A model generated the notes under the pieces. The model saw nothing but the letters and a program-made list of their open reading frames with translations, did not search any database and had not been told where the DNA came from. From the NCBI GenBank assembly GCA_018001635.1, contig JAGNHS010000006.1:2905-66904 (forward strand): 64,000 bases of DNA, written 5' to 3'. This document shows positions 26,553 to 52,463 of this stretch, piece after piece; positions within the stretch are counted from its first letter, which is position 1, and every line of letters starts with the position of its first letter. The DNA comes from Pseudomonadota bacterium (GTDB lineage: Bacteria; Bdellovibrionota; UBA2428). The position numbers were made by a program, and so were the translations under genes.

Positions 26553-26706
26553 AATTAACCTATTTTCTTGGCACCACTGTCAAAATACTTGAGACTCAAG
26601 AATTGACGCCTGAGAGTTTTGACTTTTTAATCGATAGTAGGGGATATCGTTTTCGGGGATCGATTAACTAAGTTAATCAAGTAAAACGCCGGTCTCAAGA
26701 ACATCC

Positions 26707-28620
26707 ATGGGGGGGGAACTAGGGATGGCACACGGACACGTGAGTATTGTCTTGGGGGTTCAATCGGGCTTAGGTCCGATTGTTCACATCTTCGAGAGTG
26801 TCAAAAAAGGGATAGGTCTTAATCAGAACCTAAACTTTGCGACAAAAAACCGAAGCAGTGATTTTGACATCCACAACATTTTGGCACAGTTGCTCCAGAT
26901 GGATCAATTGTTGCGTCGTGAAGAAGTCGACGTCAGTTGGTCGCTTTTGGGATCTAATCCAAGAGTGGAACTACCGTTGCTTTTTTCATGTTTAGGAATC
27001 AGTCAGGAGACTGGGAACATCATGGGGCTTGAAAGTATTCAAGACACGCCCACCGATGCTCTCGTCTACGTGCCTGTGGACGTGCTTCAGTCACGTCAAA
27101 TCGAGCAACTGGCTCGTTTGACCATGATTTGTCCGCGCACACGACACGTGACCTTTGCAGCGACTCCACGATGGAATCACATGCAATTGATGGCTCTTAA
27201 AGAAACTTGGGAGTGGGTCGATCCTAAAGCGACTCAAGCCGTAACAAAGTTTGCTGAAGATATTATTCGAGCTAATGGTGGCATCACTCAGAAAGATCTC
27301 GATAAAGTGCAAACATTAATGTCGAATGGTGCTTCAGGCTCGTCTTCTGCTTCGTCTAAAGAAAAGTCTGTAGAACCTAATATCATTATGCACTCACCTA
27401 AAATGAAAGAGCTCATTCATTTGGTAGACGCTGTTGCTGATTCCGATAGCACCATTTTAGTTTATGGTGAATCGGGAACAGGTAAGGAGCTTGTTGCTGA
27501 AAGAATTCATGCACGCTCTAATCGCAATGGACATCCACTTGTGGCTGTGAATTGCGGCGCGATTCCTTCGGAACTACTTGAAAGTGAATTGTTCGGTCAT
27601 GTTAAAGGCGCATTTACTGGCGCTATTTCGAATCGTGAAGGACGTTTTCAAGTGGCAGAAGGTGGAACTCTTTTTCTCGATGAAATCGGGGAAATGGGCA
27701 CTTCTCTTCAGGTAAAACTTTTACGCGTACTTCAAACTCGTAAATTCGAACCTGTAGGTTCGACTCAAGCTATCAATGCGAATGTGAGAATCATCGCAGC
27801 GACAAATCGTGATCTCGAAGAGATGGTTCGTCAGGGCCAATTTCGCGAAGATCTTTTTTATCGCCTCAATGTGATTCCAGTTCACATTCCATCACTCCGA
27901 GAAAAGAAAGAAGATATTCCTTATCTCGTAGAGTATTTCGTGCGGAAGTTTAATTCCGAAAAGAAAAGACGGGTAACCGGCGTAACACGCGCCGCTCTTA
28001 GGGCTATGGTCGCCTACGACTGGCCAGGCAACATACGCGAATTAGAAAATCTAATTGAACGTATGGTGATCTTAAAGAGCTCAGGCATGATAGACGCGCT
28101 GGATTTTCCGGAAAAATATCGAAGGCAGACTTTGTCTGAGATCGAATACGAGGATCTGATGAATCCTCAAAGAAAAGAACAAGCGTTGCATCAAGTTCAA
28201 ACTAAAGCCACAGGGGGGGATATGGCTATGGACGATAATAACACGACCTTTAATTACAATTCTTCGTTGTTCCAAAAGAAGAACATCGAGCAAAGTGCTT
28301 CAAACATTGAAGGCACAGCTTCGATTTCTGCAAACAACGCAAGCACCATTGGTGGAGAAGACATGGTTCGCATCGAAGATGCCATTCGTATGCTTTCTGA
28401 CCGCCTTCATTTTCCTGTTGAAGGTTTAGATTTTAATTCTGTGGTCGATCAATTTGAAAATATTTTGATCCTTCACGCTCTTGAACGTACTGGTTGGAAC
28501 CGTAATCGCGCTGCAGGTCTTTTGCGTTTGAACCGTACAACATTGGTAGAAAAGCTTAAAAAGAAGCAATTGATTCCTCCAATGCATGCACAAGAGGGAA
28601 TGACTAGCGGAAACGCTTAG
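26707..28620 (+). CDS. Sigma-54-dependent transcriptional activator (bacterial enhancer-binding protein)
   Basis: Sigma-54 interaction domain (GESGTGKELVAE, GAFTGA, ESELFGH) and a C-terminal Fis-type HTH. The N-terminal region of about 230 aa is unassigned. An Asn/Ser-rich insertion lies before the HTH. Confidence 0.85.
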   Translation: MGGELGMAHGHVSIVLGVQSGLGPIVHIFESVKKGIGLNQNLNFATKNRSSDFDIHNILAQLLQMDQLLRREEVDVSWSLLGSNPRVELPLLFSCLGISQETGNIMGLESIQDTPTDALVYVPVDVLQSRQIEQLARLTMICPRTRHVTFAATPRWNHMQLMALKETWEWVDPKATQAVTKFAEDIIRANGGITQKDLDKVQTLMSNGASGSSSASSKEKSVEPNIIMHSPKMKELIHLVDAVADSDSTILVYGESGTGKELVAERIHARSNRNGHPLVAVNCGAIPSELLESELFGHVKGAFTGAISNREGRFQVAEGGTLFLDEIGEMGTSLQVKLLRVLQTRKFEPVGSTQAINANVRIIAATNRDLEEMVRQGQFREDLFYRLNVIPVHIPSLREKKEDIPYLVEYFVRKFNSEKKRRVTGVTRAALRAMVAYDWPGNIRELENLIERMVILKSSGMIDALDFPEKYRRQTLSEIEYEDLMNPQRKEQALHQVQTKATGGDMAMDDNNTTFNYNSSLFQKKNIEQSASNIEGTASISANNASTIGGEDMVRIEDAIRMLSDRLHFPVEGLDFNSVVDQFENILILHALERTGWNRNRAAGLLRLNRTTLVEKLKKKQLIPPMHAQEGMTSGNA

Positions 28621-38142: not shown

Positions 38143-39591
38143 TTATTTTGTACCTGCCAGCTTAGGGAGTGAGTCGATTGTGGCTTGTGAAATCGCATAG
38201 CCCCTAGTTTGAGCAAGTCTTGCAGAAAGTGCCGATACGTAGGGCACCATATGTTTTCCAGGGCAATCATGACCATCATTTACGTTGAGGCAAACTCCCG
38301 TTAGGCAATGTCCTTTATCTCTATGAGTTCGTACGTGTTCTATAGGATATTTCATAGCGATTTGATCTTGAAGTTTTGTGAGGAGAGTTACAACTTCTTC
38401 AGGCACGGCATCTTTATCGTAATCTCCTGCAATTGAAACTCCGATAGATCGAGCATTGCAATCAGACGCGTGACAACCGCGATAACCTAATGGAGTTCCT
38501 TCAAAAATTTTCCACTCTCCTCGAGCATCCTTCTTAATCACAAAATGATAACCCAAATCTTTAAAAGGTTTTTGAAAGCGGTGAAACAAACTCATATCGA
38601 CAAGATTGGGTGATTGAGATCCATCGGTGTGGTGAATAACTATTTCATCGTAGGTGAGTTCTTGTTTTCTTTCCTGGAACCATTTTGGGTCCTGAGAGCT
38701 GACAGTCTGAGTGCTATATTTTCTTTTTTTTCCATTCACAGAGGAAAGAGCGCGATACTTTTGTCCATGGGCTTCCTCAGACCACCATTGTGCGCGAGAT
38801 ACAATATTGACATTTGAATTTGGGCTAAATCTTCGAGAGCTCACTTTGCTTTTGGCATTTTTAAGAGCGTTTCTGTCATTTTCAACAAGGGATAGAAATT
38901 TTGAATGCTGATTTCGGTAATCACTACTAGATAAAGAGAGCCATAAACTGTCTTCAACACATTTAAATTTTTTAGAAATATTGGAATTTTTTAAGGCTTT
39001 AATGAGGGCCAATTGAGTCTGCGTGACTTCTTGTTCTAAGGAGTCATTCTTAACAAGGGCTTCTTGGTCCATTCCGTGGGTTTTCATTTTTACAAAAAAT
39101 CCCTTTTGCGAATGACTTAAAAAGAAATGTTCTTGCTTTTGAACGGCATTCAAATAATTTATAAGACTCAAGTTTAAGCTACTAATGGCGGACTTTGTTC
39201 GACTCTTTTGAGGCCCATCGCTGAGCTTAAGTTTGAGTCCTTCGATGAAAGAAATTCTTTCATCAAGGTGATCTTTGTTGATGTATATTGCAAGTTGATC
39301 GAGATCATTGACTAGACTTGAATCAGGACAGGCACCCTTGTTAAAAATAAATTCTATAGGATCTGAATCAGTTTTAATATTATTGTTTGAACTTTGAGGA
39401 GTTTTTGTGTTTTGAATTTCTTCTCTTGAGGTTGCTTTTGTTGTTGTGTTTTTGTTGCTGTTCGCCGGATTCCTGTGAAAAATTCTACTAAAAAAACTAT
39501 CTGTAGCTGAAAAAACTGCTGGTATTGAAATTAAATTCAACAAACCTAAAATAAAAAAAACAAATGAGTACTGAGTTTTTTTCATGCCCAC
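38143..39591 (-). CDS. Secreted N-acetylmuramoyl-L-alanine amidase (amidase_2/PGRP family) with a long N-terminal region
   Basis: Signal peptide. The C-terminal domain has IVIHHTDGS, GYHFVI, GCHASDCNARSIGVSIAGDY and HRDKGHCLTG. Confidence 0.65.
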   Translation of the reverse strand: MGMKKTQYSFVFFILGLLNLISIPAVFSATDSFFSRIFHRNPANSNKNTTTKATSREEIQNTKTPQSSNNNIKTDSDPIEFIFNKGACPDSSLVNDLDQLAIYINKDHLDERISFIEGLKLKLSDGPQKSRTKSAISSLNLSLINYLNAVQKQEHFFLSHSQKGFFVKMKTHGMDQEALVKNDSLEQEVTQTQLALIKALKNSNISKKFKCVEDSLWLSLSSSDYRNQHSKFLSLVENDRNALKNAKSKVSSRRFSPNSNVNIVSRAQWWSEEAHGQKYRALSSVNGKKRKYSTQTVSSQDPKWFQERKQELTYDEIVIHHTDGSQSPNLVDMSLFHRFQKPFKDLGYHFVIKKDARGEWKIFEGTPLGYRGCHASDCNARSIGVSIAGDYDKDAVPEEVVTLLTKLQDQIAMKYPIEHVRTHRDKGHCLTGVCLNVNDGHDCPGKHMVPYVSALSARLAQTRGYAISQATIDSLPKLAGTK

Positions 39592-39759: not shown

Positions 39760-42700
39760 TTATTTTTTCTTCTTATTCTCTGTTTTGAATAGTTTTCTAA
39801 GAAGTTTTACAACATTCACTTTTTCTTCTTCCTCGGAGATGAGTTGATAACCTACAAAGTTATCCATTTTAGCTTTCCCGATGAGGAATTGTCCAAGGGC
39901 ATCTTCTTCGCTGTAAGCTGTAAAGTTTATAGTTCCAAAGAATCGTGAATTGCCCATAACTTTTTCAATATTAGATTGAGCTGAATCGCTAAGATCTGCA
40001 ATGAGGTCGCCAAACATGAATGTGAAACGATCGTATTCAGAATCTGGAAATTTGGCTTGCACCTCTAAGGCTTTAGCCGCGCCCACTCCATAATCTGTGC
40101 CTCCACCCAGTTGGACTTTATAGAAGTCATTTTCATGGGCTTCGTCAAAATCATAAGCCACTCCGTCAAAAGCCACGTAGGTAAAAACGATGTTTTTATA
40201 TTTGTGTTTTAAAAGTGAGCGAATGTTGAAAATGATTTCCTTCATTTTCTCTACATATCCCATCATACTTCCTGATAGGTCAGAGATAATAGTGACATGG
40301 GCAGAGATGTCGGGGTCAGGTTGCTGCCGATGATTTTTAGAATGAATGTTTTTCTTCTGTAAAAAGTCCACGCCAACTTCGAAGGGGTCAAGCTCGGAGG
40401 TATCCTCGCCCTCTTCTTCTCGAAGGTTGATCACGCCGAGTCCGAGTTTAATGGCATCGCGAACAATTTTCTTAGCCACATAGGGTTTACGGTCTAAAGG
40501 TTGAGAGCCAACAAATATTTTACGCATTTGTTCGGTTTGTCCCTTGAGTGGTCTTAGGTTGGGTAACTCAACTTCATCCTTTATGAGGCTTTGATAAAGC
40601 TCTAATGGAATTTCAATATAAGAGGGGTCGCCACCGCCGCAGCCTTGACCATTTGAGGGTTTGCCTGTGTCACTATCCTCATCGCTACCTTCGTCGGGTT
40701 CTCCGTCGCCTTCACCATCACCGTCATTTCCATCGCCAGGCTGGTTTGAGGATTTTTCAACATAGTATTCCTTGTCCTTAAGACCTTGGGGCTGCAAAAG
40801 AAGTCCATCATCAGTTACAAAGGGATTGTTGTCTAAATCATTCACTTTTGAGAGTAATCTTTTTATTCCGTTTTGCGCACGTCGATCGAAGACTATTCCG
40901 CCAACTTCAGGCAGCACTTTGAGGCTATAGCCGCTGCCAGTTCGAGTGAGGCCACCATTGTTGGCCGCTTTTGAGAATGCCGCTAAAAATCTTTCTGCAA
41001 CTTTTTGGTGATATCGATTGAGTGCTTTGAGAATTCCGTGAGGAACTTCATTGAGTGCCATAGAACCTACAACATCGTTGATGTTTTTATAAATACTACC
41101 TAGAGGATCAATTTCAATTCCTTCTTTGTTTTTGAGAGTGCTGACAATTCCCTTTGGAACTTCAGTTTGATCGATATGGTAATCTATTAAAAATTCTCTT
41201 AAATTTTTAAATAGATGACCGTAAATTTCTTTGTCTACTGTAGATTTTTCTGCAGCCTCAGGAGTCCATTCTCTAAAGCTAGGCGTTTGATGAATTTCAA
41301 TTCCTTCTTCCCAAGAAGAATTACTATCCAATATTTCCATTTTTTTAAGAGTTGAGACGTTTATTTGTCCTTCAGGGTTGACTCTTATTTTCGCTCTAGC
41401 CAAGCGATATCCAATGACTTTCATTTTAGGTTTGAAACTAAACCAGTCCCACGTCACTTCTTTTATAACATCGATGATAAGTGTGGCTTCTAATTCAACA
41501 GTTTTCCTAAGTATTTTGGCCCAACTGAGTAGAGTAGGGGCTACAGTTTTTCTATTGATGGGTGTGAAGTAACCCATTTCATTACTCACAGATAATTTCG
41601 CAACATCATCTGTCTGATTGTGCAAATTATTCCAGACAACACGCGGATAGGCGTAGGAGAGGTTCCAGTCCTGTTGCACTTGATATCGAATACGTTCAGG
41701 ATCGTGAGTGATGACCTGATAGAGGGTGCCGTCCATATAATCTTGAGGAAGAGGAGCCCCTTGTTGAGCAAGTTGGAATTTTTCTTCGTTGCTGAATTTT
41801 TTAACTAGGGCTAGGTGCCTGTTTTTGATCCATTGATCAGTCAGCTTAGAAAAAATAAACATGACATTATTGCCAAGGTTTGGATTGTTTATGATTTCTC
41901 TAGCATAATTTATAAATTTTTGATCGCGCTCCATTCCTTCCAATTTAATGTTTTCAGGGCGCCTATTGAATTCTTCTCTAATTTCTCTCCAAATTTCGAG
42001 TCCGAGAAAATAAGGATTTGTGAGTGAGGGTCGCGCTACTCTTCCAGCGAGCATCCCAATTTCAGCAGCGTCACCAAAACTTCGTGCATAGTCGGGGTGA
42101 TGTGAGAAAATAATTTCCTCAACGAGCATGGCAAAACCTTCATTGAGTAACTTTGTGTTAACGGCACCAGGAATAAAGCGATTCATTTTTTCAAATTTTT
42201 TCGCCATTTCTAATTTCCAAGGTGCGATATCGCTTGGTAGTTCACTAACAAAGGCTTGAAGAAGGCTTACCGTTTGCTTTCCTGAACTCTGACTAGTCTG
42301 AACAAGGCCATCGCGCCATTGATTGAATCCTATGGGTCTGTCAGCCTTTAAGTCTTTAGGTTCTACATAGGCACCGCTCCAAACATCTTGTGCCATTTCA
42401 AGCGAAAGTAAATGGAAAAACCAATCCTCTACTTCTCGAGGATCTTCATATTTTCCAATATCTGTCATTAGTTCATCGAGCTCAACAGAAACTCCAACGC
42501 GATCATGGGAAGTTTTGTGTTTAAAGTAAGAATTCACATGGAAGAAATTATGGCCATAGACGTGAGCCAATATGTTCATGAATAATATGGGACTTAAGTT
42601 GCTCAAGTAATAGCTATGCTGTGTGCTGTGGCCCGAGAGTACAAATTCTAAAACCCCTTGAAGATTTCGTGCTTGATTGAAAATTGCGGCCCCGTCACTC

Positions 42701-42969
42701 CAGCTGCCGACAGGGTAACGATTCACCGCCGCCATTCCAGCCACTGAAGACGGATTGAGTAATTCTACAATATGTTTTTTTATGCCATTTAGAAGACCTA
42801 ATTTATCGGCGATGTCATGAACTTCAGCTAAACGTTTATGATATTCCGCTGCGTCAGGTTGGTTGTGCGAGTCCGCTATTAAGTGCTCTTGGCAGCTGAA
42901 AGAGTGTTGGGCAAAGATGAAGCTAAGGATACTGAGAAACTTTAGAGTGTTTAATCTAATAAAGCTCAT
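39760..42969 (-). CDS. Fusion protein with an N-terminal SpoVR/YcgB-family domain and a C-terminal YeaH/YhbH (DUF444, vWA-like) domain, preceded by a signal-peptide-like N-terminus
   Basis: SpoVR motifs LAHVYGHNFFHVNSYF, NEGFAMLVEEII and NPYFLGLEIWREI. An acidic/Gly linker (DGDGEGDGEPDEGSDEDSD...GCGGGD) is followed by ELPNL and the DUF444 vWA core HVTIISDLSGSMMGY...KYKNIVFTYV...FYKVQLGGGT. Its start overlaps the upstream stop (ATGA). Confidence 0.7.
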   Translation of the reverse strand: MSFIRLNTLKFLSILSFIFAQHSFSCQEHLIADSHNQPDAAEYHKRLAEVHDIADKLGLLNGIKKHIVELLNPSSVAGMAAVNRYPVGSWSDGAAIFNQARNLQGVLEFVLSGHSTQHSYYLSNLSPILFMNILAHVYGHNFFHVNSYFKHKTSHDRVGVSVELDELMTDIGKYEDPREVEDWFFHLLSLEMAQDVWSGAYVEPKDLKADRPIGFNQWRDGLVQTSQSSGKQTVSLLQAFVSELPSDIAPWKLEMAKKFEKMNRFIPGAVNTKLLNEGFAMLVEEIIFSHHPDYARSFGDAAEIGMLAGRVARPSLTNPYFLGLEIWREIREEFNRRPENIKLEGMERDQKFINYAREIINNPNLGNNVMFIFSKLTDQWIKNRHLALVKKFSNEEKFQLAQQGAPLPQDYMDGTLYQVITHDPERIRYQVQQDWNLSYAYPRVVWNNLHNQTDDVAKLSVSNEMGYFTPINRKTVAPTLLSWAKILRKTVELEATLIIDVIKEVTWDWFSFKPKMKVIGYRLARAKIRVNPEGQINVSTLKKMEILDSNSSWEEGIEIHQTPSFREWTPEAAEKSTVDKEIYGHLFKNLREFLIDYHIDQTEVPKGIVSTLKNKEGIEIDPLGSIYKNINDVVGSMALNEVPHGILKALNRYHQKVAERFLAAFSKAANNGGLTRTGSGYSLKVLPEVGGIVFDRRAQNGIKRLLSKVNDLDNNPFVTDDGLLLQPQGLKDKEYYVEKSSNQPGDGNDGDGEGDGEPDEGSDEDSDTGKPSNGQGCGGGDPSYIEIPLELYQSLIKDEVELPNLRPLKGQTEQMRKIFVGSQPLDRKPYVAKKIVRDAIKLGLGVINLREEEGEDTSELDPFEVGVDFLQKKNIHSKNHRQQPDPDISAHVTIISDLSGSMMGYVEKMKEIIFNIRSLLKHKYKNIVFTYVAFDGVAYDFDEAHENDFYKVQLGGGTDYGVGAAKALEVQAKFPDSEYDRFTFMFGDLIADLSDSAQSNIEKVMGNSRFFGTINFTAYSEEDALGQFLIGKAKMDNFVGYQLISEEEEKVNVVKLLRKLFKTENKKKK

Positions 42970-45900
42970 TTTTTCTCCTCAGGAATCAATAAATATTCGC
43001 AACGATCGCCGAATCCAGCATGATTTCTTTCCAATTCCGGAACCTTATCTCTTATGAGATCATTACCTTCTAAAAGTTGTGTGACGTATTCAACAGTAAG
43101 AGGTGAGAGTGGAGATTCTTCAGTTTTAAAGGCAAATTCAGCGAATTCAGCTCGGGTGCTGAGCGCGGGTTCGTCTATGATTTCTTCGAGCATTTTCATC
43201 ATGAAAACGTTGGCATTGTCCCAGGGTAGATTGGCAATGGCTTGGTCTATAGCCCAAAGAAAAATAATCGCTAAATCACTTGAGCTCAAATTTCTGTGGA
43301 GTCCTTTTTGTACTTCTTTGAGTTTGGGATTTAAAAAACCCTGATTAGAGACAAACATTTGAAAGAGGTCTCTTATTTTGTCTGTAGTGCTTGCAAATTC
43401 TTCACGCACTTCTTTTGAGTTTTTCATGGAATCAAGCCAAGCTTGAGAGTTGGATTCTTGAAATCCATTGGATTGATAAAATTTGTAAAACAAATTTTTC
43501 ATGAGCGATTCAATGTTGATAATTAAGCGGCTTATGTATTCACGTTGTCCTTCTTGTTCCTGAATTGAGCCTTTAATTTTTAAAAAATCATCTAGGGAAT
43601 CGCTCTCAAGAACGCTAGACGCGGGAAGTTTGAAAGGAATAACGGGTTTTGAATTATGATGAGCATCCATGAGGTCTTGGAATTCGGAAAGGAAACCAGA
43701 GTGGTTATTTATTTTTAATCGAACTGGGGATAGATCCAAATTCCAAAATCTTAATTCTGGACGATTTCTTAAGTTGAGATAGACTCCCGTGATGAGCGGT
43801 TTGAGGTAGTACATTTCATTTTGAAGACTCGCCCTAAAAAACTTATGATTTTGGATTGAGTTTATGAAATGATTATAAAAATTGATTCTAAAAGAGTTAG
43901 AATTAAATTCTGCGAAATCAAGTCTTCCGCGAAGGTTGTCAAAGGTGACTGGTTTTACAACAACATGTTTCTTAATTTGGTTTCTTAATGTGGTTGAATT
44001 TATAGTGGAACCACCTTCTTCCACTTGATGATCATCATTGTACCATTCATCAACATTCCAATCGTCTTTGAGGTCTTTGCTGTCATGGGTATCGCTTTTA
44101 GAGCTAGTCACATAATAGAGTGGAGCGGGGGCTAGAGAGTCATCTTTAGCTTCTGTGAATAGAGAGTTAGTAACGGGCATTAAAAAGTTTCGCGCGTGAG
44201 CTTTGGGGAAAATTTGTGCAATTTCAGAAAGAATATGTGGATTCACTAAAATCAGTTTGTTTGAAAGAGTTAATTCTTGGAGACTTCGAGCTCTGATTTT
44301 TGAAATCAAACCCGAGGCTTTGGCCTCACGTGGAAAATCACCAAAGTTAATGAGATCAGAAAAACGAGCTAAGATGGAGGGCTCATATTGAGCACCTTCA
44401 ACTTGTGAAAGTGCTGCAATGATTTGTGATTCAATAGAACTAGCATCATCGATATATTGATCTCTAATTTCACGATTGGATGCAGGGTTGATGGTTACAA
44501 ATAAAGAGATATTTCTAACAGGAATTTCGATGGTCATTTTATCTTCAAGACGAGAGACTCTGACCAAGTTGTTGTTCAGTAAGTTTTGGATATAAGACAT
44601 AACTCGACTGAGAACGTTGGCGTTCTTAGCTTTGTGAAGATCGTCAATAAGTATGAAACCTCGGTAGCCGAGAGGAAGTGATAAGAAATTGTCTAAGTGT
44701 TTCAGTGCGTCTTCAACATATAAACTTTTTCCAGTGGCTTCTTCTTTTTTATCTACCAAATCTTCTACTTTTAGGAAAAAGGCTTGAGCATTTTCATCTA
44801 AAGGTCTGTTGAAGTCGTAAACTTTTATATCGAGTAATTGGATGAGCTTCTCAAAGAAAAAAGTTTTTCCTAAACTTGTTTCACCGAAAAATACGGCTGA
44901 TGAGGGAATTTGCTTTGAACTATCGGACCCTTGAGTTTGCGAAAGAATAAGCCTGAAAATTCTTTCTTTGAGATCCAGTTGACCAGCATATCCTAGTTTT
45001 GTGAGATCCACTGCGGCTCGAGCGGTGTCTTTAATTTTATGAAGAACGTCTTCGGGTTCAAGGGATTTATAATTTAAGGGGATGGGGAAAACTTTGGCTA
45101 AAAATCTTTCTACATAGTTTTCGTCAATCACTCGACTTCTTCTGAGTTTATGGTCGTCGACTAATGATTTTCTAAAAATGGAATAGGAGCGTACAAAGGC
45201 TTCGATGGGTTCTTGATTGAGTGAATTGGCAACAGCTTCAATTCGATTGGCTAAAAATTTGGTGATGTTCAAAAACGGAGCGCTGTTTCTTTCGGCGCCA
45301 GATTCGTTTCCATTGTATCGAAATGAGTAATTCAGAGTTCTAATGTCTTCTCGATAGAATAAATTTCTCAAAATGTTAGAGCGGTGCTCTACGCTTGGAT
45401 ATTCAAGTCGAACTATTTCAAAATCTTTTTGAAGATCCATAAAATGCGACTCAAGGCCTAAATCTTTTTCTAAATCTTCGATTTGTTCAGGAGTGGCTAC
45501 AATAATTTCTGAAACGCTTGGGGTAGCTTCATCTCTTAAGCGCCATTGCTTTTTTAATTTAGGTTGGATTCTTCTACCTTCGGAGGCCAACCACCACATG
45601 ATGTGAGGGAAAATTGTATTGGGTTTGTCTATGTCGCTACGAGAAGAACTGTTTCCATCTTTGTCACTGCCTTCGTTGGGGCTGTTGGCGCTCGATTGAG
45701 CCTCGGAAGCCGTTTCAGCTAATAGCTCAGTTTTTTTCATGGCCGCAGGATCGCTAATTCTAAAAGGTTTGATGTCGCTTTTTTCTCCAACTAGTGGACG
45801 TTCATTGCGTAAAAGGTCGCTCGCATCTGCTAAAAGAACAACACTATTTTCTTGGCTGAGTCTTCTCATGGCGTCTAGATTGCCAAAGATTTCTTCTTGA

Positions 45901-48900
45901 TGAACTTTTCCACCTTGTGGATATCTGAATATTGAAAGATGGGGATTTCGAAAATTCCAGGAAGTGTTTAAATTTGGATTTCCATTAGTATCTCTTTCTA
46001 GGGCCACGTTGTAGCGACTCGACCAATGAGTCATTAAAAAGCGAAGCATGAGTTTTTTGATGTTTTCAGGGACAACTATGATTCTATGTTTAGGTTTTTC
46101 AGGTTTTTTAGAGAGCTCACTCAAAATGGGTCTTAAATTTGGGAAAACTTGAAGATCGTCTGAGGTGAGCGCACTCACCGACATTCTTCTGATGTCAGGA
46201 GTGGATCTCGGAGTGTTCGGAGGCCAGTTGTACCATTGTGAGGTTAAGAATCTTGCATCGATTTCAAATAGACCTTTGTCTACTAAGCCTGCTTTGAATT
46301 CATGAGGATGAGCTTCTTGAAGTTTTAAAAGTTTTTTAGGAGTTGTTAGAACAACAGTTGTCACAGATTTGAAGGAGTCTGATGGAGAGCTTAAATCTTT
46401 AAGGTGTCGTCCTTTTCCTTCCGTGGCTAAGAGAAAAAGTCCAGAAAGTTTATGGGGCGAAGAGGGATCGTAAATGTGATCAGACGAGGTTGAGCGTGCT
46501 GATTCGGAGAAGCTTTCTTCATCGAGTTCATCGCCACCTTGGTTTGTTTCTACAACTTCTGGTTCATCTTCTTCATGCTTGTGTTTAGTTCCTTTGTTTC
46601 TGCCGTCGTTCTCTTCTTCATCCTCTTCGTCATCTTCTGTCTTTTTGTTTGAAGCTTTAGACTCGGGATCATTATTAGCGCTTACGGTTTCGATTCCCAT
46701 TTGTCTTTCAGAGTCGCTTGAGGCGTAGTCGAGTATGCTAAACGAGGATGCACTGTCACTATCTTCAGAGTTTTTGCCGTCTGTTTCTAATATGAAAGTT
46801 TGTAAAAGCTCGTCGGAGCCTGCAAATAGTACGTTTTGTGTTGTTGATTCAGAGGCAAGTTTTAATTCCTTGCGCATTTCCCGAGCATCGGATTGATGGT
46901 CAAAGAAGTAGAGTTCAAAATCGTTTCCACCGGGTTTCCATTTAAGGGACCAACCTGTTTTTTTGTTATCGAGTTTAAGGAGCATGAGGTTATAAAAGTT
47001 GGCGTAGTCTTCGTCAGACACTACAAGGAAAGTTTTTTTACCTTTTTTAGAAGGATCTACGACTAAGGAATCTAGGTACTCGTCTAAGAGTGGGTAAAGT
47101 GGTCCTTTCCCCCCAGGTCCGAAATTTAAATCTTTATAAGTTTTAGCTTGCTCAGCTTCATTTCCGTCGAGTGCTTTGGAAAGTGTTGAATTAATTGAGC
47201 GTAATCCAGTGGAGGATGAAATGCTCCATCGACTTCCTATCCAAAATAAGCGACCCTCTTTTTCGTTTTCCTGAACAATTCTTTCTTTAAGGCGAATATT
47301 AATATTTTCTTTTGAGGGAACAACAAGTTTAGAGACGTAATTAAAACATCTCATTTTATATTTTGCAGAAAAATAATCTTCATTGGGAGTGTCAACCCAA
47401 TACAGGGCACCATTGCCATCGGGAAGCACTCGGTCGCTAATGCGATTGGCGGTCACATAACTTTTTGTAAGCCAACCTGAGGAATCTGGAATGTTGTTGG
47501 CTGTGAATTCAATTTTTCCAGCTTTGAGTTGAGATTGAATTTCGTATCCTAGCAGATACACGCCACCCGTGTTCTGACGAGTCCTTTTGAGAAAGAGCAT
47601 AACGTAAATGCTGTTAGCGTGCTTTCTTAAACCTTTAAAAACTCTTACACCCTCAATTTGAGAGAATGAAAATGGAAGCTCTCGTGTGGCGAAGAAAGTG
47701 TTCTTTATGTTTTCTCCAACTCGACCCTCGTAATTAAAAAGGGTCACAAGATTGAATTTTCCTTCTAAATTAGGTTGCTGAGAGTTGTTTGGAAGCATTC
47801 CAAACAAATGGATTTTGAAGGCTTCCAATTGCTTCGAAGATTCGCTGAGTGGAAGATGAATGTCAGTGGTGTATAGAACAGCACGAATGGAATCTTTGGA
47901 AATGGATGTTCTTGAATTTTTCTTTGTCTTTGTTTTTGAGCTATTGGAATAGATAAGCTGTCCGGGAATGAATGATGAATCATCTTTGTTTAAATGCGAT
48001 GTTGAATCAGCAGGTGTTTCGTGTCGATCTGCGGAATGCGTATCCTCAAGATAGACTCCGGTTTTTTCATTGAGTTGTGATTGTTTGTCGTTATTGAATT
48101 CTCGATAAACAACATGGGGGCTCATGATTACGGGAAACTCGTTTTTAGCTTGAAGAAATACTGTTTTCTTTTTGGGGTCGCTTTCAGAGACGTTAAGATA
48201 GGCGGTGACTCGCAGTCCTCCGGGATTTTTTTGAGAATCACTTCTATAGGTTTTGGGCCCCACGCGAGGAGTGCTGTTGTCGAAAACTAAACCAAGGTTT
48301 TCCACATTCTTGATTCGTAATTCTAGTTCTTCTTTGCTGAAACTGTACGTATTCGATATAACCTGCATGTCTTTAACGCTGACGTGACCCATGGATTCTT
48401 CAAGTTCAATCGCGAAAGTTCCCCCTCCAGGATAATATTGAGTTTTTCCTGATAAAATTAAATAATGTTTTTTGTAAACCGCACCAGAAATGAGTTCGTC
48501 ATCAGGGGTGTTGTCTGAAAATCCAAAAATGGGTGCTGATTTTCTTTTTTCGATTTTAGGTTGTGGAAGATCAAAGGACTCTAGAATTATAACGTTGTCG
48601 TTGTTGAAAGGGTCGAATTTGAGTTTGGTAAATTGTTCTTGAACTTCGACAACCTGAATACTTCTGTTTCTGGATTTTAGTCTTAACAGAATGCTTTTAT
48701 CCAATGAGAATAAAACCTCAACAGAGGAATCGTTTGAGAGAGATCGAGTTAAAAACTTTTTATTGTCTTGATCCCAGCTGAGTCTTCCTTTTTGGGGTGG
48801 AGTACCTTCATATTGAAAGGAGAGCCCATCTCCTAAGGGTTCAAAGAATTGAGTGACTCCCGAAATGGCCATGTTAGAAACTTGAGGTTCGGGTCTTTTC

Positions 48901-49844
48901 TCGAGGACATCCACTAAGGGAGGATTAGTGAGCACACTCAGTTTAAGAGATTTTCCAGAATTAATATCGATGTCTCTATATCGACTTGTAAAAGTTTTTT
49001 TATCGATTTTGGAATTGGGGTCGAGATAATCCAATAAAAGCTTCACTTTTTTTAACCAAATATCAACGAGAGGGTGCTCTTTGTCGTTTTTCCATTTTTC
49101 ATAAACTGTTTTTAGAAGATAGGGGGAGTATGCTTTGTCGGGTGAATAGTCGGCAAAAAGTCTTATGAGTCCTTGGTCTGTGGGGTGAAATCTATAATCG
49201 AGGAGCACCGGTTCAGATATTTTAAATTCACCTGTTTCGATGCCTCCGTTTTTAACAATAGCAAAAGTGATTCCGTCAGAACCCATTTGAGGAATGCCTT
49301 GCTTAACTGAGATGATATACATACACGAGTTGTCTACAGGGTATTGTACAATCGTGATGTCTTTGGGGTCCTTTATGTTTTCAAGATAAATTTTACGTTT
49401 CGTGAGAGGATCGATGATTGGGACGGGAGTGGCAAATTTGTTGGGTATTTTTTGGGATTCATTAGCGCCAATAATGAGTGAGCTGGCTGCTTTTTTTTCT
49501 GAAGTGTTTTTGTTAACGATATAAATTTGTCCATCGAGAATGACTAAGGCTTCTTGATTTCCTTGTTGAGTGACAGGAGCTAAGAGTACAAAAGTTTCAG
49601 CGGATCGCTTATTCACGCCAAGCACTTCTTTTTGAATCAGTGGAGTAGAGTTTTCAGCTCCAGTATTAAAAAAATAAATTCCCTTTTTTTTGCCATTGAG
49701 TTCAGTGTTGAATACCAACTCGTATAAGGCTCTTGCATTATGAGGATGTGGAAAAATGAAAGACCCCTCGTCGGCCGCGCGTAAGGCTCCACTTTGTCCG
49801 ACAAGTAGGGCGGCAAGGGCAATATGTTTGAGGAGGTGTCTCAT
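42966..49844 (-). CDS. Giant (2292 aa) secreted protein with a Clp/Hsp100-like AAA+ ATPase domain and a poly-acidic low-complexity region
   Basis: Signal peptide (LKHIALAALLVGQSGALRA). Walker A FFGETSLGKT and Walker B GFILIDDLHKA, with ...LFVTINPASN resembling the Clp D2 core. A long Asp/Glu/Ser tract (TEDDEEDEEENDG...). The remainder is unassigned. Confidence 0.6.
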   Translation of the reverse strand: MRHLLKHIALAALLVGQSGALRAADEGSFIFPHPHNARALYELVFNTELNGKKKGIYFFNTGAENSTPLIQKEVLGVNKRSAETFVLLAPVTQQGNQEALVILDGQIYIVNKNTSEKKAASSLIIGANESQKIPNKFATPVPIIDPLTKRKIYLENIKDPKDITIVQYPVDNSCMYIISVKQGIPQMGSDGITFAIVKNGGIETGEFKISEPVLLDYRFHPTDQGLIRLFADYSPDKAYSPYLLKTVYEKWKNDKEHPLVDIWLKKVKLLLDYLDPNSKIDKKTFTSRYRDIDINSGKSLKLSVLTNPPLVDVLEKRPEPQVSNMAISGVTQFFEPLGDGLSFQYEGTPPQKGRLSWDQDNKKFLTRSLSNDSSVEVLFSLDKSILLRLKSRNRSIQVVEVQEQFTKLKFDPFNNDNVIILESFDLPQPKIEKRKSAPIFGFSDNTPDDELISGAVYKKHYLILSGKTQYYPGGGTFAIELEESMGHVSVKDMQVISNTYSFSKEELELRIKNVENLGLVFDNSTPRVGPKTYRSDSQKNPGGLRVTAYLNVSESDPKKKTVFLQAKNEFPVIMSPHVVYREFNNDKQSQLNEKTGVYLEDTHSADRHETPADSTSHLNKDDSSFIPGQLIYSNSSKTKTKKNSRTSISKDSIRAVLYTTDIHLPLSESSKQLEAFKIHLFGMLPNNSQQPNLEGKFNLVTLFNYEGRVGENIKNTFFATRELPFSFSQIEGVRVFKGLRKHANSIYVMLFLKRTRQNTGGVYLLGYEIQSQLKAGKIEFTANNIPDSSGWLTKSYVTANRISDRVLPDGNGALYWVDTPNEDYFSAKYKMRCFNYVSKLVVPSKENINIRLKERIVQENEKEGRLFWIGSRWSISSSTGLRSINSTLSKALDGNEAEQAKTYKDLNFGPGGKGPLYPLLDEYLDSLVVDPSKKGKKTFLVVSDEDYANFYNLMLLKLDNKKTGWSLKWKPGGNDFELYFFDHQSDAREMRKELKLASESTTQNVLFAGSDELLQTFILETDGKNSEDSDSASSFSILDYASSDSERQMGIETVSANNDPESKASNKKTEDDEEDEEENDGRNKGTKHKHEEDEPEVVETNQGGDELDEESFSESARSTSSDHIYDPSSPHKLSGLFLLATEGKGRHLKDLSSPSDSFKSVTTVVLTTPKKLLKLQEAHPHEFKAGLVDKGLFEIDARFLTSQWYNWPPNTPRSTPDIRRMSVSALTSDDLQVFPNLRPILSELSKKPEKPKHRIIVVPENIKKLMLRFLMTHWSSRYNVALERDTNGNPNLNTSWNFRNPHLSIFRYPQGGKVHQEEIFGNLDAMRRLSQENSVVLLADASDLLRNERPLVGEKSDIKPFRISDPAAMKKTELLAETASEAQSSANSPNEGSDKDGNSSSRSDIDKPNTIFPHIMWWLASEGRRIQPKLKKQWRLRDEATPSVSEIIVATPEQIEDLEKDLGLESHFMDLQKDFEIVRLEYPSVEHRSNILRNLFYREDIRTLNYSFRYNGNESGAERNSAPFLNITKFLANRIEAVANSLNQEPIEAFVRSYSIFRKSLVDDHKLRRSRVIDENYVERFLAKVFPIPLNYKSLEPEDVLHKIKDTARAAVDLTKLGYAGQLDLKERIFRLILSQTQGSDSSKQIPSSAVFFGETSLGKTFFFEKLIQLLDIKVYDFNRPLDENAQAFFLKVEDLVDKKEEATGKSLYVEDALKHLDNFLSLPLGYRGFILIDDLHKAKNANVLSRVMSYIQNLLNNNLVRVSRLEDKMTIEIPVRNISLFVTINPASNREIRDQYIDDASSIESQIIAALSQVEGAQYEPSILARFSDLINFGDFPREAKASGLISKIRARSLQELTLSNKLILVNPHILSEIAQIFPKAHARNFLMPVTNSLFTEAKDDSLAPAPLYYVTSSKSDTHDSKDLKDDWNVDEWYNDDHQVEEGGSTINSTTLRNQIKKHVVVKPVTFDNLRGRLDFAEFNSNSFRINFYNHFINSIQNHKFFRASLQNEMYYLKPLITGVYLNLRNRPELRFWNLDLSPVRLKINNHSGFLSEFQDLMDAHHNSKPVIPFKLPASSVLESDSLDDFLKIKGSIQEQEGQREYISRLIINIESLMKNLFYKFYQSNGFQESNSQAWLDSMKNSKEVREEFASTTDKIRDLFQMFVSNQGFLNPKLKEVQKGLHRNLSSSDLAIIFLWAIDQAIANLPWDNANVFMMKMLEEIIDEPALSTRAEFAEFAFKTEESPLSPLTVEYVTQLLEGNDLIRDKVPELERNHAGFGDRCEYLLIPEEKK

Positions 49845-49862: not shown

Positions 49863-52463
49863 TTATTTTTTGTCGTGCTTGTTGACGTGCTCCACTAAGA
49901 ATCGAAGCGCTTGCACGAAAGATCTCTCGTTGTATCCGTATCTTTCCAAGTTGCTGAGTATCTTTTGCCCAGCCGTTTGAGTTTCAGTGGCCACGGATCT
50001 TCCTTGCATGAAATCAAGGAGGCTTTGGTAGCTGTTAGTTTTTAAGTTCTGACTCATCAACCAATCAGAAATAGCTTTTTCAAGCTTAATCCACATGGGG
50101 AGGGGTGATCCGTCAGTATTATGAAGCGCTAAATTGGCAACATAAGCTTGGAGATCTGGGGGATTAAGATCGTCGCCCCAGCGTTTTCTAAAGGCCTTTT
50201 TAATTTCAGTGAGTCTATCAAAATTGATGGCAGTAGGTATGTCGCCTTTTGATTTAGTGTGGTGTGTGGCTTTAGAGTCTTGCGCTAAGTGTGAAATTTC
50301 CGAAGTGACTGCATCGTAAATACTGCGCACTTTATTGGTGTCGTTAGCAATAATCGAGTTCACATCGTTCATGAGCTTAGGAAGTATGAGCTCTGCTGCA
50401 ATTCTCTCGGCGAGTTCGAGCCATTTAGCGTATTCAGGGCGTTCCTTTTGAAATTGGTTTTCGTGAAGGGTGAGTCTAAAGGCGTCTTTTATTTCTACAG
50501 GAGTTAAAGTGTTTGAATGTCCGGGAGATTGTGCGAGTTCAAGGGCCTTTTTAAAGACCACTTCAATATCGCGTTGTCCAATTCCATTATCGCCTTCATT
50601 GAGAAGAGCTTCCTTTGAGAATTCCGTTAAAGCCGCTAGAACTTCTTGATTCTCAACAACTTCATCTCCTGTGATAATTCGAAGACGGTCAATTGGGTCG
50701 GTGAACCATCTTAGATCGGGACGTGTGATACGAGTGAGAATGTTGGCGTCTTTGAGTTTATCGATATTTGTTTCAAGCGAAGAGCCTGCGGCAATGCATC
50801 CCAAGAAATATAGCGAATAGGGTGAAATATCGACAAAGGAACTTTTGCTAGCGCTGATTTCAGCTGGCGAATCAATTTTAACTCTTACGGCGTAATGACC
50901 CTCAGGGCCTGAAATATTTCCATTGCTGTCGGGTTCTGCATAAATTTCCTTGATGAGGGGTGAATTTGAGCTTTCGTTTAGTGTGGCGAGATTTTTGTGT
51001 TCTGTTGAATCCAATTTGCGTGCACTAAAGTTATTGGGTTTGAGAGTGAGTAAAAGTGCAAGCTCTCTCCATCTTGGATGGAGGAGGTTTTTCATGGCAA
51101 TATGTTGTAAGCGAGATAGAAGAGCGTCGGTGTCCATGCGTTTTTTGGAATCTGCAATGGAACTATAGTTTGCAGAAAACACATTAAAGGTGTCCATCGC
51201 TAAAGCGGGGGTGTCTGAACCTTTGGCGACGCCTTCTTGTAATACAGAAAGTAGGAAGTGGAGAACTACGGGGTCGTTTCGAGTAACGTCGTCCCAAATG
51301 ATCATGGAGCCATCGTTTTGAGAGAGGGGTCCGTTAAAATGGAAGCCGAGAGTGTTATTGGCGCCTTTAATTCTTGCGGCTACGTTGGCAGTTCCAATTA
51401 AAGAAGAGGTGTCGGGGGCTTCTTCCATAGGACGAATAATGGGATCGCGATTGGAGGCAAGGCTGATGTCTTTTCTTGCAATACCCACAAAATTTTCAAA
51501 TATGGCTAAATAGTCAGCTACGGTGAGAGAAGTTGCTTTTGTGGCTTTTAAAATATGTTTTTTATAAAAAGGAATGAGAAATTCTCTTAGGATATCTTCT
51601 GCATGAGAATCGCGGGCGACAGCTTGGCCAGGATTTCTTTCGTAGAAATCACCAATGTCGAAACCTAACATTTTAGAGGCGGTGGCACCTAGAGTTTTTG
51701 CGTAAGCCACTTTGAGTTCGGTGGGAAGTAGGCTGAAGGGACTTCTTTGAAGGCTTGTAACATTAAGGCGATCGCTATCTTTGACTAAGAATTGATCGAG
51801 TCTTTGACCTAATGAAGGATCAGTTTGTTTTATCATGTCCAAATTTTTCCAAAAATAGGTGTATTCCTTGAATAGAGGATCTCGAACTGAGAGGTGGGCT
51901 AGGGCATATCGAATGACGTATTCGAGAACTGTTTTTCCAGTTCCTGGAGGTCCCTTTAAAAGTGGTCCTTTACTTCCGCGCATACCTTGTGCGGCTTCGG
52001 AGATGATTTTTGCCAAGCTCGAGCTAGCTTCATATTGGCCTACGAGAAAAAGTCCGCCAGTTGCGGGCAAGGCATCATGATAGACTTTGGGAACATTATA
52101 ATATTGGTGCTTGTAGACGGGGTCTAAAACTCGGCGATATCCAAAATTATTCAAGACCGCTAATTGTTTTTGATCAGCATTCATTAAAAGTAAGGGATGC
52201 TCTTTTATGAGATCGGGTAATTTTGAAAAAGGATACTCTACGGCGTATTCTTCGGTGCCGGCAATAGCTAGTTGAGCCACTGTTTCGGGCACTAAAAGAG
52301 TTGAGCATAATTTTGGATCAACATGAAAACTTTTAGGAGTGCTAGTTGTTGATTTAGCCGCGGATGCTTTTTTGCTTTCTGCTGCAAATGAAAAATTTTC
52401 TAAGCTCATTAAAAAAATAACGACGTGTGTAATTTTTAGAATTGTAGGTAGGCTTTTTCTCAT
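49863..52463 (-). CDS. Divergent PrkA/YeaG-like AAA+ serine protein kinase homolog with a signal-peptide-like N-terminus
   Basis: Walker A LLKGPPGTGKT. The region LIGTANVAARIKG...GPLSQNDGSMIIWDD...VLHFLLSVLQEGVA parallels PrkA LVGKVD...GALCRANQGIMEFVE...LHPLLTATQEGNY. The C-terminus GYNERSFVQALRFL parallels PrkA GYTRKQVRLLCEW. Homology assignment is from recollection of YeaG. Confidence 0.55.
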   Translation of the reverse strand: MRKSLPTILKITHVVIFLMSLENFSFAAESKKASAAKSTTSTPKSFHVDPKLCSTLLVPETVAQLAIAGTEEYAVEYPFSKLPDLIKEHPLLLMNADQKQLAVLNNFGYRRVLDPVYKHQYYNVPKVYHDALPATGGLFLVGQYEASSSLAKIISEAAQGMRGSKGPLLKGPPGTGKTVLEYVIRYALAHLSVRDPLFKEYTYFWKNLDMIKQTDPSLGQRLDQFLVKDSDRLNVTSLQRSPFSLLPTELKVAYAKTLGATASKMLGFDIGDFYERNPGQAVARDSHAEDILREFLIPFYKKHILKATKATSLTVADYLAIFENFVGIARKDISLASNRDPIIRPMEEAPDTSSLIGTANVAARIKGANNTLGFHFNGPLSQNDGSMIIWDDVTRNDPVVLHFLLSVLQEGVAKGSDTPALAMDTFNVFSANYSSIADSKKRMDTDALLSRLQHIAMKNLLHPRWRELALLLTLKPNNFSARKLDSTEHKNLATLNESSNSPLIKEIYAEPDSNGNISGPEGHYAVRVKIDSPAEISASKSSFVDISPYSLYFLGCIAAGSSLETNIDKLKDANILTRITRPDLRWFTDPIDRLRIITGDEVVENQEVLAALTEFSKEALLNEGDNGIGQRDIEVVFKKALELAQSPGHSNTLTPVEIKDAFRLTLHENQFQKERPEYAKWLELAERIAAELILPKLMNDVNSIIANDTNKVRSIYDAVTSEISHLAQDSKATHHTKSKGDIPTAINFDRLTEIKKAFRKRWGDDLNPPDLQAYVANLALHNTDGSPLPMWIKLEKAISDWLMSQNLKTNSYQSLLDFMQGRSVATETQTAGQKILSNLERYGYNERSFVQALRFLVEHVNKHDKK

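Follow-up and report, generated by a model that had tools for sequence, protein, structure and literature searches.

Does the gene at positions 39760..42969 (reverse strand) of the DNA analyzed here truly encode a SpoVR domain and a DUF444 (YeaH/YhbH) domain in one polypeptide, and if it does, in what kind of system does the joined protein take part? The stretch, referred to below as the window, comprises 64,000 nucleotides (nt) of contig JAGNHS010000006.1 (GenBank assembly GCA_018001635.1) from a Pseudomonadota bacterium placed by GTDB in Bdellovibrionota, UBA2428. A first-pass annotation, made from the sequence letters, had noted the two domains in reversed order within a single polypeptide, and had taken their covalent fusion to argue for an obligate physical partnership and to offer a Rosetta-stone link. 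To our knowledge, few conserved bacterial gene triads of unknown mechanism are as widespread as that of PrkA/YeaG, YeaH/YhbH, and SpoVR/YcgB. The explanation that we consider best as a whole, and probably correct, is that the gene is a genuine fusion, that it is the third gene of an operon, and that its product belongs to a system that works like the PrkA-YeaH-SpoVR module and is exported via Sec.

39760..42969, reverse strand: SpoVR::DUF444 fusion gene, 1069 amino acids (aa), a single open reading frame (ORF); NCBI MBP7843660.1, "SpoVR family protein"

The fused gene and its family

The ORF begins with an ATG preceded by GAGGAG, and this start shares the sequence ATGA with the stop codon of the gene before it. 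Every SpoVR and DUF444 hallmark quoted in the first-pass annotation was present in the translation, which contains AHVYGHNFF, NEGFA, NPYFLGLEIWREI, ELPNL, DLSGSM, KYKNIVFTYV, and FYKVQLGGGT. The presence of both domains in reversed order was likewise borne out, in that the single ORF matched both Pfam families above their cut-offs: SpoVR (PF04293) at residues 100–397 (E = 2.7e-12; 46.6 bits, cut-off 27) and DUF444 (PF04285) at residues 867–1064 (E = 1.7e-16; 60.7 bits, cut-off 27), the latter match spanning only profile positions 222–418 of 418. The NCBIfam equivalog model for YhbH (TIGR02877) covered residues 745–1059 with 62 bits, far under its cut-off of 468, and the PRK05325 models gave 20–53 bits against cut-offs of 388–467. 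By these scores, the DUF444 half is a distant relative of YeaH/YhbH and not an equivalog. The JGI annotation of the gene reads "YeaH/YhbH ... / SpoVR," and automatic annotation thus already names both domains.

Direct comparison with the Escherichia coli proteins gave weak but colinear BLASTP matches: 24% identity over 209 aa with YeaH (E = 7e-10), and 25% identity over 97 aa around NEGFA/NPY with YcgB (E = 0.001). We also used a family profile built from 112 full-length members of the fused family, through which both E. coli proteins aligned in order, as the first-pass annotation had proposed to check. Residues 30–469 of YcgB corresponded to fusion residues 48–473 (E = 3e-36), and residues 78–424 of YeaH corresponded to fusion residues 726–1067 (E = 1e-52). 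The SpoVR core shared with YcgB in this alignment consists of the GxxE strand, the H..GH helix, NEG[WF]A, and NPY. Pfam reported no SpoVR_C domain (PF24755) in the fusion, though the family profile aligned YcgB as far as its residue 469. Judged by these alignments, the fused proteins are paralogues that have diverged very far from YeaH and YcgB.

The simplest alternative is that a frameshift or a misjoin merged two adjacent genes during sequencing or assembly. The window does originate from a metagenome-assembled genome (MAG), and the first-pass annotation had flagged its low-complexity Gly/acidic tract beforehand as the place where an error might lie. An independent MAG assembly, that of an uncultured Bacteriovoracaceae bacterium (L006), contained the same 3210-nt ORF, uninterrupted and 96% identical, with no indels. 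The two genes differed by 231 synonymous and 39 non-synonymous codons, which were spread across all three regions of the protein defined below (102 and 15 in the SpoVR region, 52 and 17 in the middle region, and 77 and 7 in the DUF444 region, respectively). Read at the codon level, this pattern shows purifying selection across the junction. Moreover, the acidic tract proved to be homologous to a tract that YeaH itself possesses.

Gene order provided a further argument against the artefact. Among 85 loci, both halves were encoded in one ORF in 13, and a DUF444 gene was followed by a separate SpoVR gene in 26. A metagenome sample contributed 42 further loci with DUF444 followed by SpoVR, so that only canonical loci were added; in the alignment of 70 homologues, no segment was sufficiently conserved to serve as a scan pattern. 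Wherever the halves were detected as adjacent separate genes, DUF444 therefore lay directly upstream of SpoVR (68 of 68 loci; 26 genomic and 42 metagenomic). The domain order of the fusion is the opposite of this canonical gene order, and read-through of canonical neighbors therefore cannot give rise to it. The screen of the loci with phmmer returned no unfused pair in the order SpoVR then DUF444, although this screen can miss weakly similar DUF444 genes and did miss one, in a Vampirovibrionales-like MAG (L015); that locus, detected with Pfam, holds the sole unfused pair observed in the order of the fusion. Together with the representatives described next, which share the architecture, these observations leave the artefact a negligible probability.

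The size of the family was estimated with an exhaustive hidden Markov model (HMM) search of 1.84 billion representatives, each standing for a cluster at 50% identity, thereby carrying out the database search for further fusions that had been suggested. With the threshold at E ≤ 1e-3 there were 1772 matches, and 165 of them passed E ≤ 1e-30. This stricter set included 112 full-length fused representatives (at least 990 aa), most of which were matched across nearly the whole profile. A word-indexed protein search, run with the fusion and with a six-sequence profile, returned six proteins each time. These proteins were 1016–1113 aa long, were down to 24% identical, and each carried both Pfam domains. 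The extreme rarity suggested by the word-indexed search was overturned by the exhaustive one. The hosts that could be named were MAGs of Bacteriovoracaceae, Bdellovibrionales, Pseudobdellovibrionaceae, Oligoflexia, and Bradymonadales; the genome scan used the pattern NEGFA, whereas the family consensus is NEGWA, and the list of hosts is therefore incomplete. Based on these comparisons of sequences, we conclude that this is a real fusion of ancient origin that has been conserved, and that it represents a large family in predatory bacteria.

Domain layout and predicted structure

The alignments to YcgB and YeaH through the family profile divide the protein into the following parts, all on the reverse strand.

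41551..42828, reverse strand: SpoVR-homologous region, residues 48–473, from the family-profile alignment to YcgB
40795..41550, reverse strand: family-specific middle region, residues 474–725, the real fusion junction, about 250 aa
39769..40794, reverse strand: DUF444/YeaH-homologous region, residues 726–1067, from the family-profile alignment to YeaH
40636..40746, reverse strand: Gly/acidic disordered tract, residues 742–778, internal to DUF444
39790..40344, reverse strand: von Willebrand factor type A (vWA) domain, residues 876–1060, with the metal ion-dependent adhesion site (MIDAS) D897-x-S/T899-G-S901, T958, and D988

This layout corrects one point of the first-pass annotation, which had regarded the Gly/acidic region as the linker between the two halves. 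The tract aligned with the Gly-rich tract of YeaH (approximately residues 90–112) and is thus DUF444's own. The junction lies instead at residues ~474–725, a region that showed no alignment to YcgB or YeaH in the family profile.

The structure prediction that the first-pass annotation had called for was also made. A first AlphaFold2 run with six sequences was poor, with a predicted local distance difference test (pLDDT) score of 59, and was replaced by a run with 70 homologues, which yielded a single compact multidomain body (mean pLDDT 86.2; predicted template modeling score 0.84). Its parts are a helical SpoVR core, a long beta-hairpin sheet (residues 490–567), a set of helices (residues 573–671), the ELPNL segment, and the vWA domain. 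The pLDDT fell below 50 only at residues 1–3 and 13–27 and in the acidic tract, and averaged ~45–52 over residues 1–30. In the middle region, block means reached 97 in the beta-hairpins and were ~55–75 at residues 551–570 and 601–640. The model thus predicts that the two halves are packed into one body.

Several residues were invariant in the 112 sequences. In the SpoVR part these were E108, H136, H140, E277, G278, Y320, and G323; the vWA part had D897, S901, and D988. The MIDAS has either S or T at position 899, and T958 was kept in 104 of the 112, so that by its residues the MIDAS motif is complete. The C-terminal domain has a vWA fold; vWA domains that partner AAA+ ATPases (ATPases associated with various cellular activities) were among its structural neighbors, and the nearest solved vWA folds were mostly extracellular adhesion domains. 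When the fusion profile was searched against the PDB sequences, only weak vWA matches were obtained. For the SpoVR domain, we considered an M1-type gluzincin metallopeptidase fold, recognized by HExxH plus a Glu ligand, which found no support: hhalign against E. coli PepN gave a probability of 0.2%, the Pfam model Peptidase_M1 scored 14.1 bits (cut-off 27.7) on the NEGWA helix of YcgB, and the catalytic Glu is replaced by Val. We also observed that the positions equivalent to residues 114 and 117 of the fusion (approximately 42619..42630), which are H and Q here, form a CxxC pair in ~45% of the family (e.g., PGCPEC).

Operon partners and predicted export signals

A conserved, translationally coupled operon ends with the fusion gene; a PrkA-like gene comes first in it, and a gene for a giant P-loop protein second. 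The two upstream genes in the window are as follows.

49863..52463, reverse strand: PrkA/YeaG-like AAA+ ATPase, 866 aa, divergent, the first gene, with a predicted signal peptide
42966..49844, reverse strand: giant P-loop protein, 2292 aa, the middle gene, with a predicted signal peptide and a 4-nt overlap with the start of the fusion gene

The complete order was found in the window and in loci L001–L006, L011–L014, L090, and L091. In the loci that end early (L009, L010, L088, and L089), the giant gene lay directly upstream of the fusion gene.

The PrkA-like ORF matched the Pfam models PrkA_C (26.6 bits, cut-off 25) and AAA_PrkA (20.5 bits), and AAA_PrkA matched all eight of its orthologues. 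A profile of these orthologues matched E. coli YeaG with E-values of 5e-24 and 1e-23 in two comparisons, and PDB entry 9xip, "Serine protein kinase," with an E-value of 2.9e-25. The Walker A motif is GPPGTGKT; as Walker B-like motif, the window and L001 have DD, and the remaining orthologues have DE. In the giant protein, a P-loop module at approximately residues 1620–1900 contains the Walker A motif GETSLGKT (conserved as GxxxxGKT) and the Walker B-like motif LIDDLH (conserved as hhhDD). No Pfam family matched the giant protein of the window above its cut-off, and its profile found nothing meaningful among the PDB sequences; AAA_22 matched six of seven orthologues. These orthologues are 1800–2240 aa long and adjoin the fusion. 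The protein carries long acidic low-complexity tracts at approximately residues 1020–1120, and by eye we noted a degenerate AAA-like module at about 1230–1500. The idea that the giant protein is itself a PrkA paralogue was rejected for lack of evidence, because the hhalign match covered the Walker A region alone (probability 52%).

The genes flanking the operon were not conserved across the loci compared. Directly downstream of the fusion in the window (38143..39591, reverse strand) is a gene whose 482-aa product has a signal peptide and ends in an Amidase_2 domain (N-acetylmuramoyl-L-alanine amidase); this neighbor is not conserved elsewhere. In a Bdellovibrionales MAG (L007), an S41 peptidase gene was located ~3.4 kb downstream. 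Elsewhere in the window, an AAA+ protein encoded at 26677..28617 (forward strand) matched the PrkA-like profile weakly (E = 1e-7) and is probably an unrelated AAA+ protein such as FtsH.

All three operon products have N-termini of an unexpected kind, and that of the fusion was delimited as follows.

42895..42969, reverse strand: predicted Sec signal peptide, residues 1–25, followed by the conserved Cys26

Signal peptides were called from statistics of hydrophobicity, charge, and length. Every orthologue of the fusion, the giant protein, and the PrkA-like protein starts with a run of positive charge, continues with a brief hydrophobic segment, and then shows a small-x-small motif, and this feature is kept in the three proteins without conservation of the sequence itself. 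A hydrophobic 10-mer with a Kyte-Doolittle (KD) value of at least 2.0 occurred in the first 50 residues of 87% of the 112 fusions; the same criterion picked out 2% of 63 canonical SpoVR proteins and 0% of 26 canonical DUF444 proteins. In the 97 fusions with a hydrophobic segment, the uncharged run had a median length of 16 aa and reached at least 22 aa in 3%, the N-terminal region before it was net-positive in 90%, and the next 10 residues were net acidic. A small-x-small motif followed the hydrophobic region in 96% of the fusion family. This geometry, to the extent that sequence can indicate it, is that of a cleavable Sec signal peptide, unlike that of a membrane anchor. In addition, the conserved residues C26, L57, L59, and H66 come before the next codon at which translation could start, and the start of the fusion is therefore correctly called.

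These data also bear on the alternative that the module is not exported but tethered to the membrane, the segments being uncleaved anchors or products of mis-called starts, and that it works on the side of the inner membrane that faces the cytoplasm and its ATP, as a membrane-bound version of the canonical cytoplasmic module. This alternative would suit the ATPases, both of which keep Walker A and Walker B and need ATP, and it would suit the canonical PrkA, YeaH, and SpoVR proteins, which have no signal peptide. However, the uncharged runs are too short to span a membrane, the net-positive region with an acidic stretch after it points to an N-in/C-out orientation or to cleavage, and the small-x-small motif is nearly universal. 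Furthermore, the conserved residues ahead of the next start codon rule out a mis-called start, and every orthologue of each of the three proteins has the feature, although the sequence is unconserved. We therefore regard a tethered module as unlikely, and consider it likely, on the evidence of these N-termini, that the three-protein system is exported through Sec.

The cysteine that follows the predicted signal peptide deserves separate mention. The Cys26 column (42892..42894) was Cys in 98 of the 112 fusions, and a similarly placed Cys, Cys53 in the PrkA-like protein of the window (approximately 52305..52307), was found in all eight PrkA-like orthologues. Both are single Cys residues in a C-x-x-x-[LF] context shortly past the predicted cleavage site. 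An intermolecular disulfide formed through Cys26 and Cys53 is possible, and a secreted machine might be held together by disulfides through these conserved cysteines. A lipoprotein reading of Cys26 was discarded, as in most homologues the Cys lies 5–13 residues beyond the hydrophobic segment.

Proposed role and comparison with known modules

The mechanism that we propose combines these parts. The fusion is laid out as a predicted Sec signal peptide, a SpoVR domain, a beta/helical insert of ~250 aa, and a DUF444/YeaH module consisting of the disordered acidic tract, ELPNL, and the vWA domain with its intact MIDAS. Considering other AAA+/vWA pairs and the cofitness of yeaG, yeaH, and ycgB, we infer that the system works like the canonical PrkA-YeaH-SpoVR module. 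By analogy with those pairs, the vWA/MIDAS part would serve as an adaptor for docking on the AAA+ ring of the PrkA-like protein, and the gene linkage and the similarity of folds are consistent with such docking. The SpoVR domain, with its invariant E/H/H/E/Y residues, would act as effector or bind the substrate, and is probably metal-binding; fusion would then fix adaptor and effector at a 1:1 stoichiometry. The whole machine would be exported through Sec and would act outside the cytoplasm of the predator, in the periplasm or beyond.

Several points weigh against this proposal. First, two exported ATPases with intact Walker motifs are difficult to reconcile with an ATP-free periplasm, and the signal-peptide call derives from the statistics named above. 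Second, we know of no biochemical function for either SpoVR or DUF444, and for this reason the roles of adaptor and effector are drawn by analogy with AAA+/vWA pairs. Third, the packing of the two halves is a feature of the predicted model alone. Finally, the profile of the giant protein did not match YeaG, YeaH, or YcgB, so that a relation beyond Walker A was not detected, and in L007 (848..6453) the PrkA-like gene is followed directly by the fusion gene with no giant gene between them. This locus is the sole exception to the operon order, and it follows from it that the giant protein is not strictly required beside the other two.

A further alternative is that the fusion acts independently of the ATPases, as an extracytoplasmic enzyme-adhesin whose vWA/MIDAS binds a surface or prey ligand while its SpoVR domain acts on the cell envelope. 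Its predicted export would fit such a role, as would the mostly extracellular adhesion domains among the closest solved vWA folds, the exported Amidase_2 gene directly downstream in the window, and the genetic link of SpoVR to spore-cortex formation in Bacillus subtilis and Myxococcus xanthus (cited in PMC5430801). Against it stand the tight operon linkage and the start/stop overlap with the ATPase genes in almost all loci, the absence of the amidase neighbor elsewhere, and the association of SpoVR and DUF444 with PrkA in every other lineage. We thus consider an independent enzyme-adhesin improbable. A bolder version of the export proposal, which we put forward tentatively and hold to be doubtful, is that the Sec-secreted AAA+ ATPase, the giant protein, and the SpoVR::vWA fusion work, for example, inside the prey cell or the bdelloplast on prey ATP.

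As for the earlier expectations about partnership, the Rosetta-stone argument was reasonable, since the fusion is conserved and its halves are packed together in the model. However, the partnership of yeaG, yeaH, and ycgB had already been inferred from operon structure and cofitness (10.1101/072470); the fusion confirms that earlier proposal and is not its first revelation. An obligate physical partnership is what the fusion and the model predict, and its status is that of a prediction. To carry the conclusion over from the fusion to the canonical cytoplasmic proteins is a matter of inference, because the fused family is very divergent, bears predicted signal peptides, and works beside an additional giant protein in its operon. 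Nevertheless, a natural SpoVR-DUF444 fusion that recurs in more than 100 divergent clusters and is predicted to form one body constitutes independent evidence for a physical unit, and offers a convenient single-chain target for structural study of the SpoVR-DUF444 interface.

More surprising than the fusion itself are two features that the first-pass annotation missed, as it did the range of hosts: the setting in an operon and the predicted signals for export. If the secretion reading is true, the system would be an ATP-driven extracytoplasmic machine and would provide the first cellular handle on the role of SpoVR and DUF444. The giant P-loop protein would be a new partner of obligatory appearance, though none lies between the genes in L007. 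ATPase motifs combined with predicted Sec signals, in lineages known for predation, raise a testable question about where AAA+ machines operate. The chief interest of the locus thus lies in the puzzle of the exported ATPases and in the single-chain structural target.

In the literature that could be searched, we came across no description of the fusion or of its setting. PrkA is reported to be an AAA+ ATPase that sporulation requires, and a protease activity of PrkA was reported by one study and not by another (PMC9512850, PMC13001217). In Bdellovibrio bacteriovorus, Bd0228, Bd0229, and Bd0231, with the annotations kinase, hypothetical, and SpoVR, make up a core operon of the attack phase (PMC5430801). 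Given its very high conservation among Bdellovibrio and like organisms (BALOs), this is probably the canonical operon.

The closest known counterpart is the PrkA-YhbH-SpoVR module of B. subtilis and its equivalent in E. coli, YeaG-YeaH-YcgB. As in these modules, a homologue of each family is present here and all are co-located in one operon, and both the MIDAS and the core residues of SpoVR are conserved. In contrast, canonical SpoVR is a stand-alone protein of ~470–510 aa with no signal peptide, whereas here the domain lies within a 1069-aa protein, joined to DUF444 in the opposite order and separated from it by a family-specific insert of ~250 aa. The canonical gene order is prkA, DUF444, spoVR; here it is PrkA-like, giant, SpoVR::DUF444, with the extra P-loop protein placed between the PrkA-like gene and the fusion. 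Identity is 24–25% over short stretches, and the NCBIfam equivalog cut-offs are missed by far. Signal peptides are predicted on all three proteins, so that the prediction does not agree with a cytoplasmic location. The system is therefore a variant of the PrkA/YeaH/SpoVR module that is divergent and fused, has an additional giant partner, and is probably exported.

Other systems in which an AAA+ ATPase works with a vWA-MIDAS partner include NorQ-NorD, MoxR/RavA-ViaA, CbbQ-CbbO, the Mg-chelatase ChlI-ChlD, the MIDAS of Rea1/MDN1, and the proteasomal Rpn10. In none of those is the vWA domain known to be fused to a SpoVR domain, as it is here, and the present system differs also in its predicted extracytoplasmic location.

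The nearest relative in the order of the fusion is the locus of the Vampirovibrionales-like MAG (L015, 6746..15854), which encodes PrkA (861 aa), SpoVR (749 aa), DUF444 (474 aa), and a second PrkA paralogue (890 aa), in that order. A second MAG (L016) seems to be syntenic with it, the PrkA-like and SpoVR ORFs alone being seen there. As in the fusion, SpoVR stands ahead of DUF444, and the cluster contains two PrkA-type ATPases. The 749-aa SpoVR can be aligned as far as fusion residue 596, well into the middle region, and it therefore shares the beta-hairpin extension; SpoVR_C (PF24755) is also present in it. The differences are that SpoVR and DUF444 are separate in L015, that its proteins have long disordered N-termini and no signal peptides, that its PrkA genes match Pfam much more closely, with 107 and 104 bits, and that its second ATPase is a PrkA paralogue, in place of the giant protein of the fusion operon. 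From its gene order and alignment, this locus looks like the unfused sister state of the fusion.

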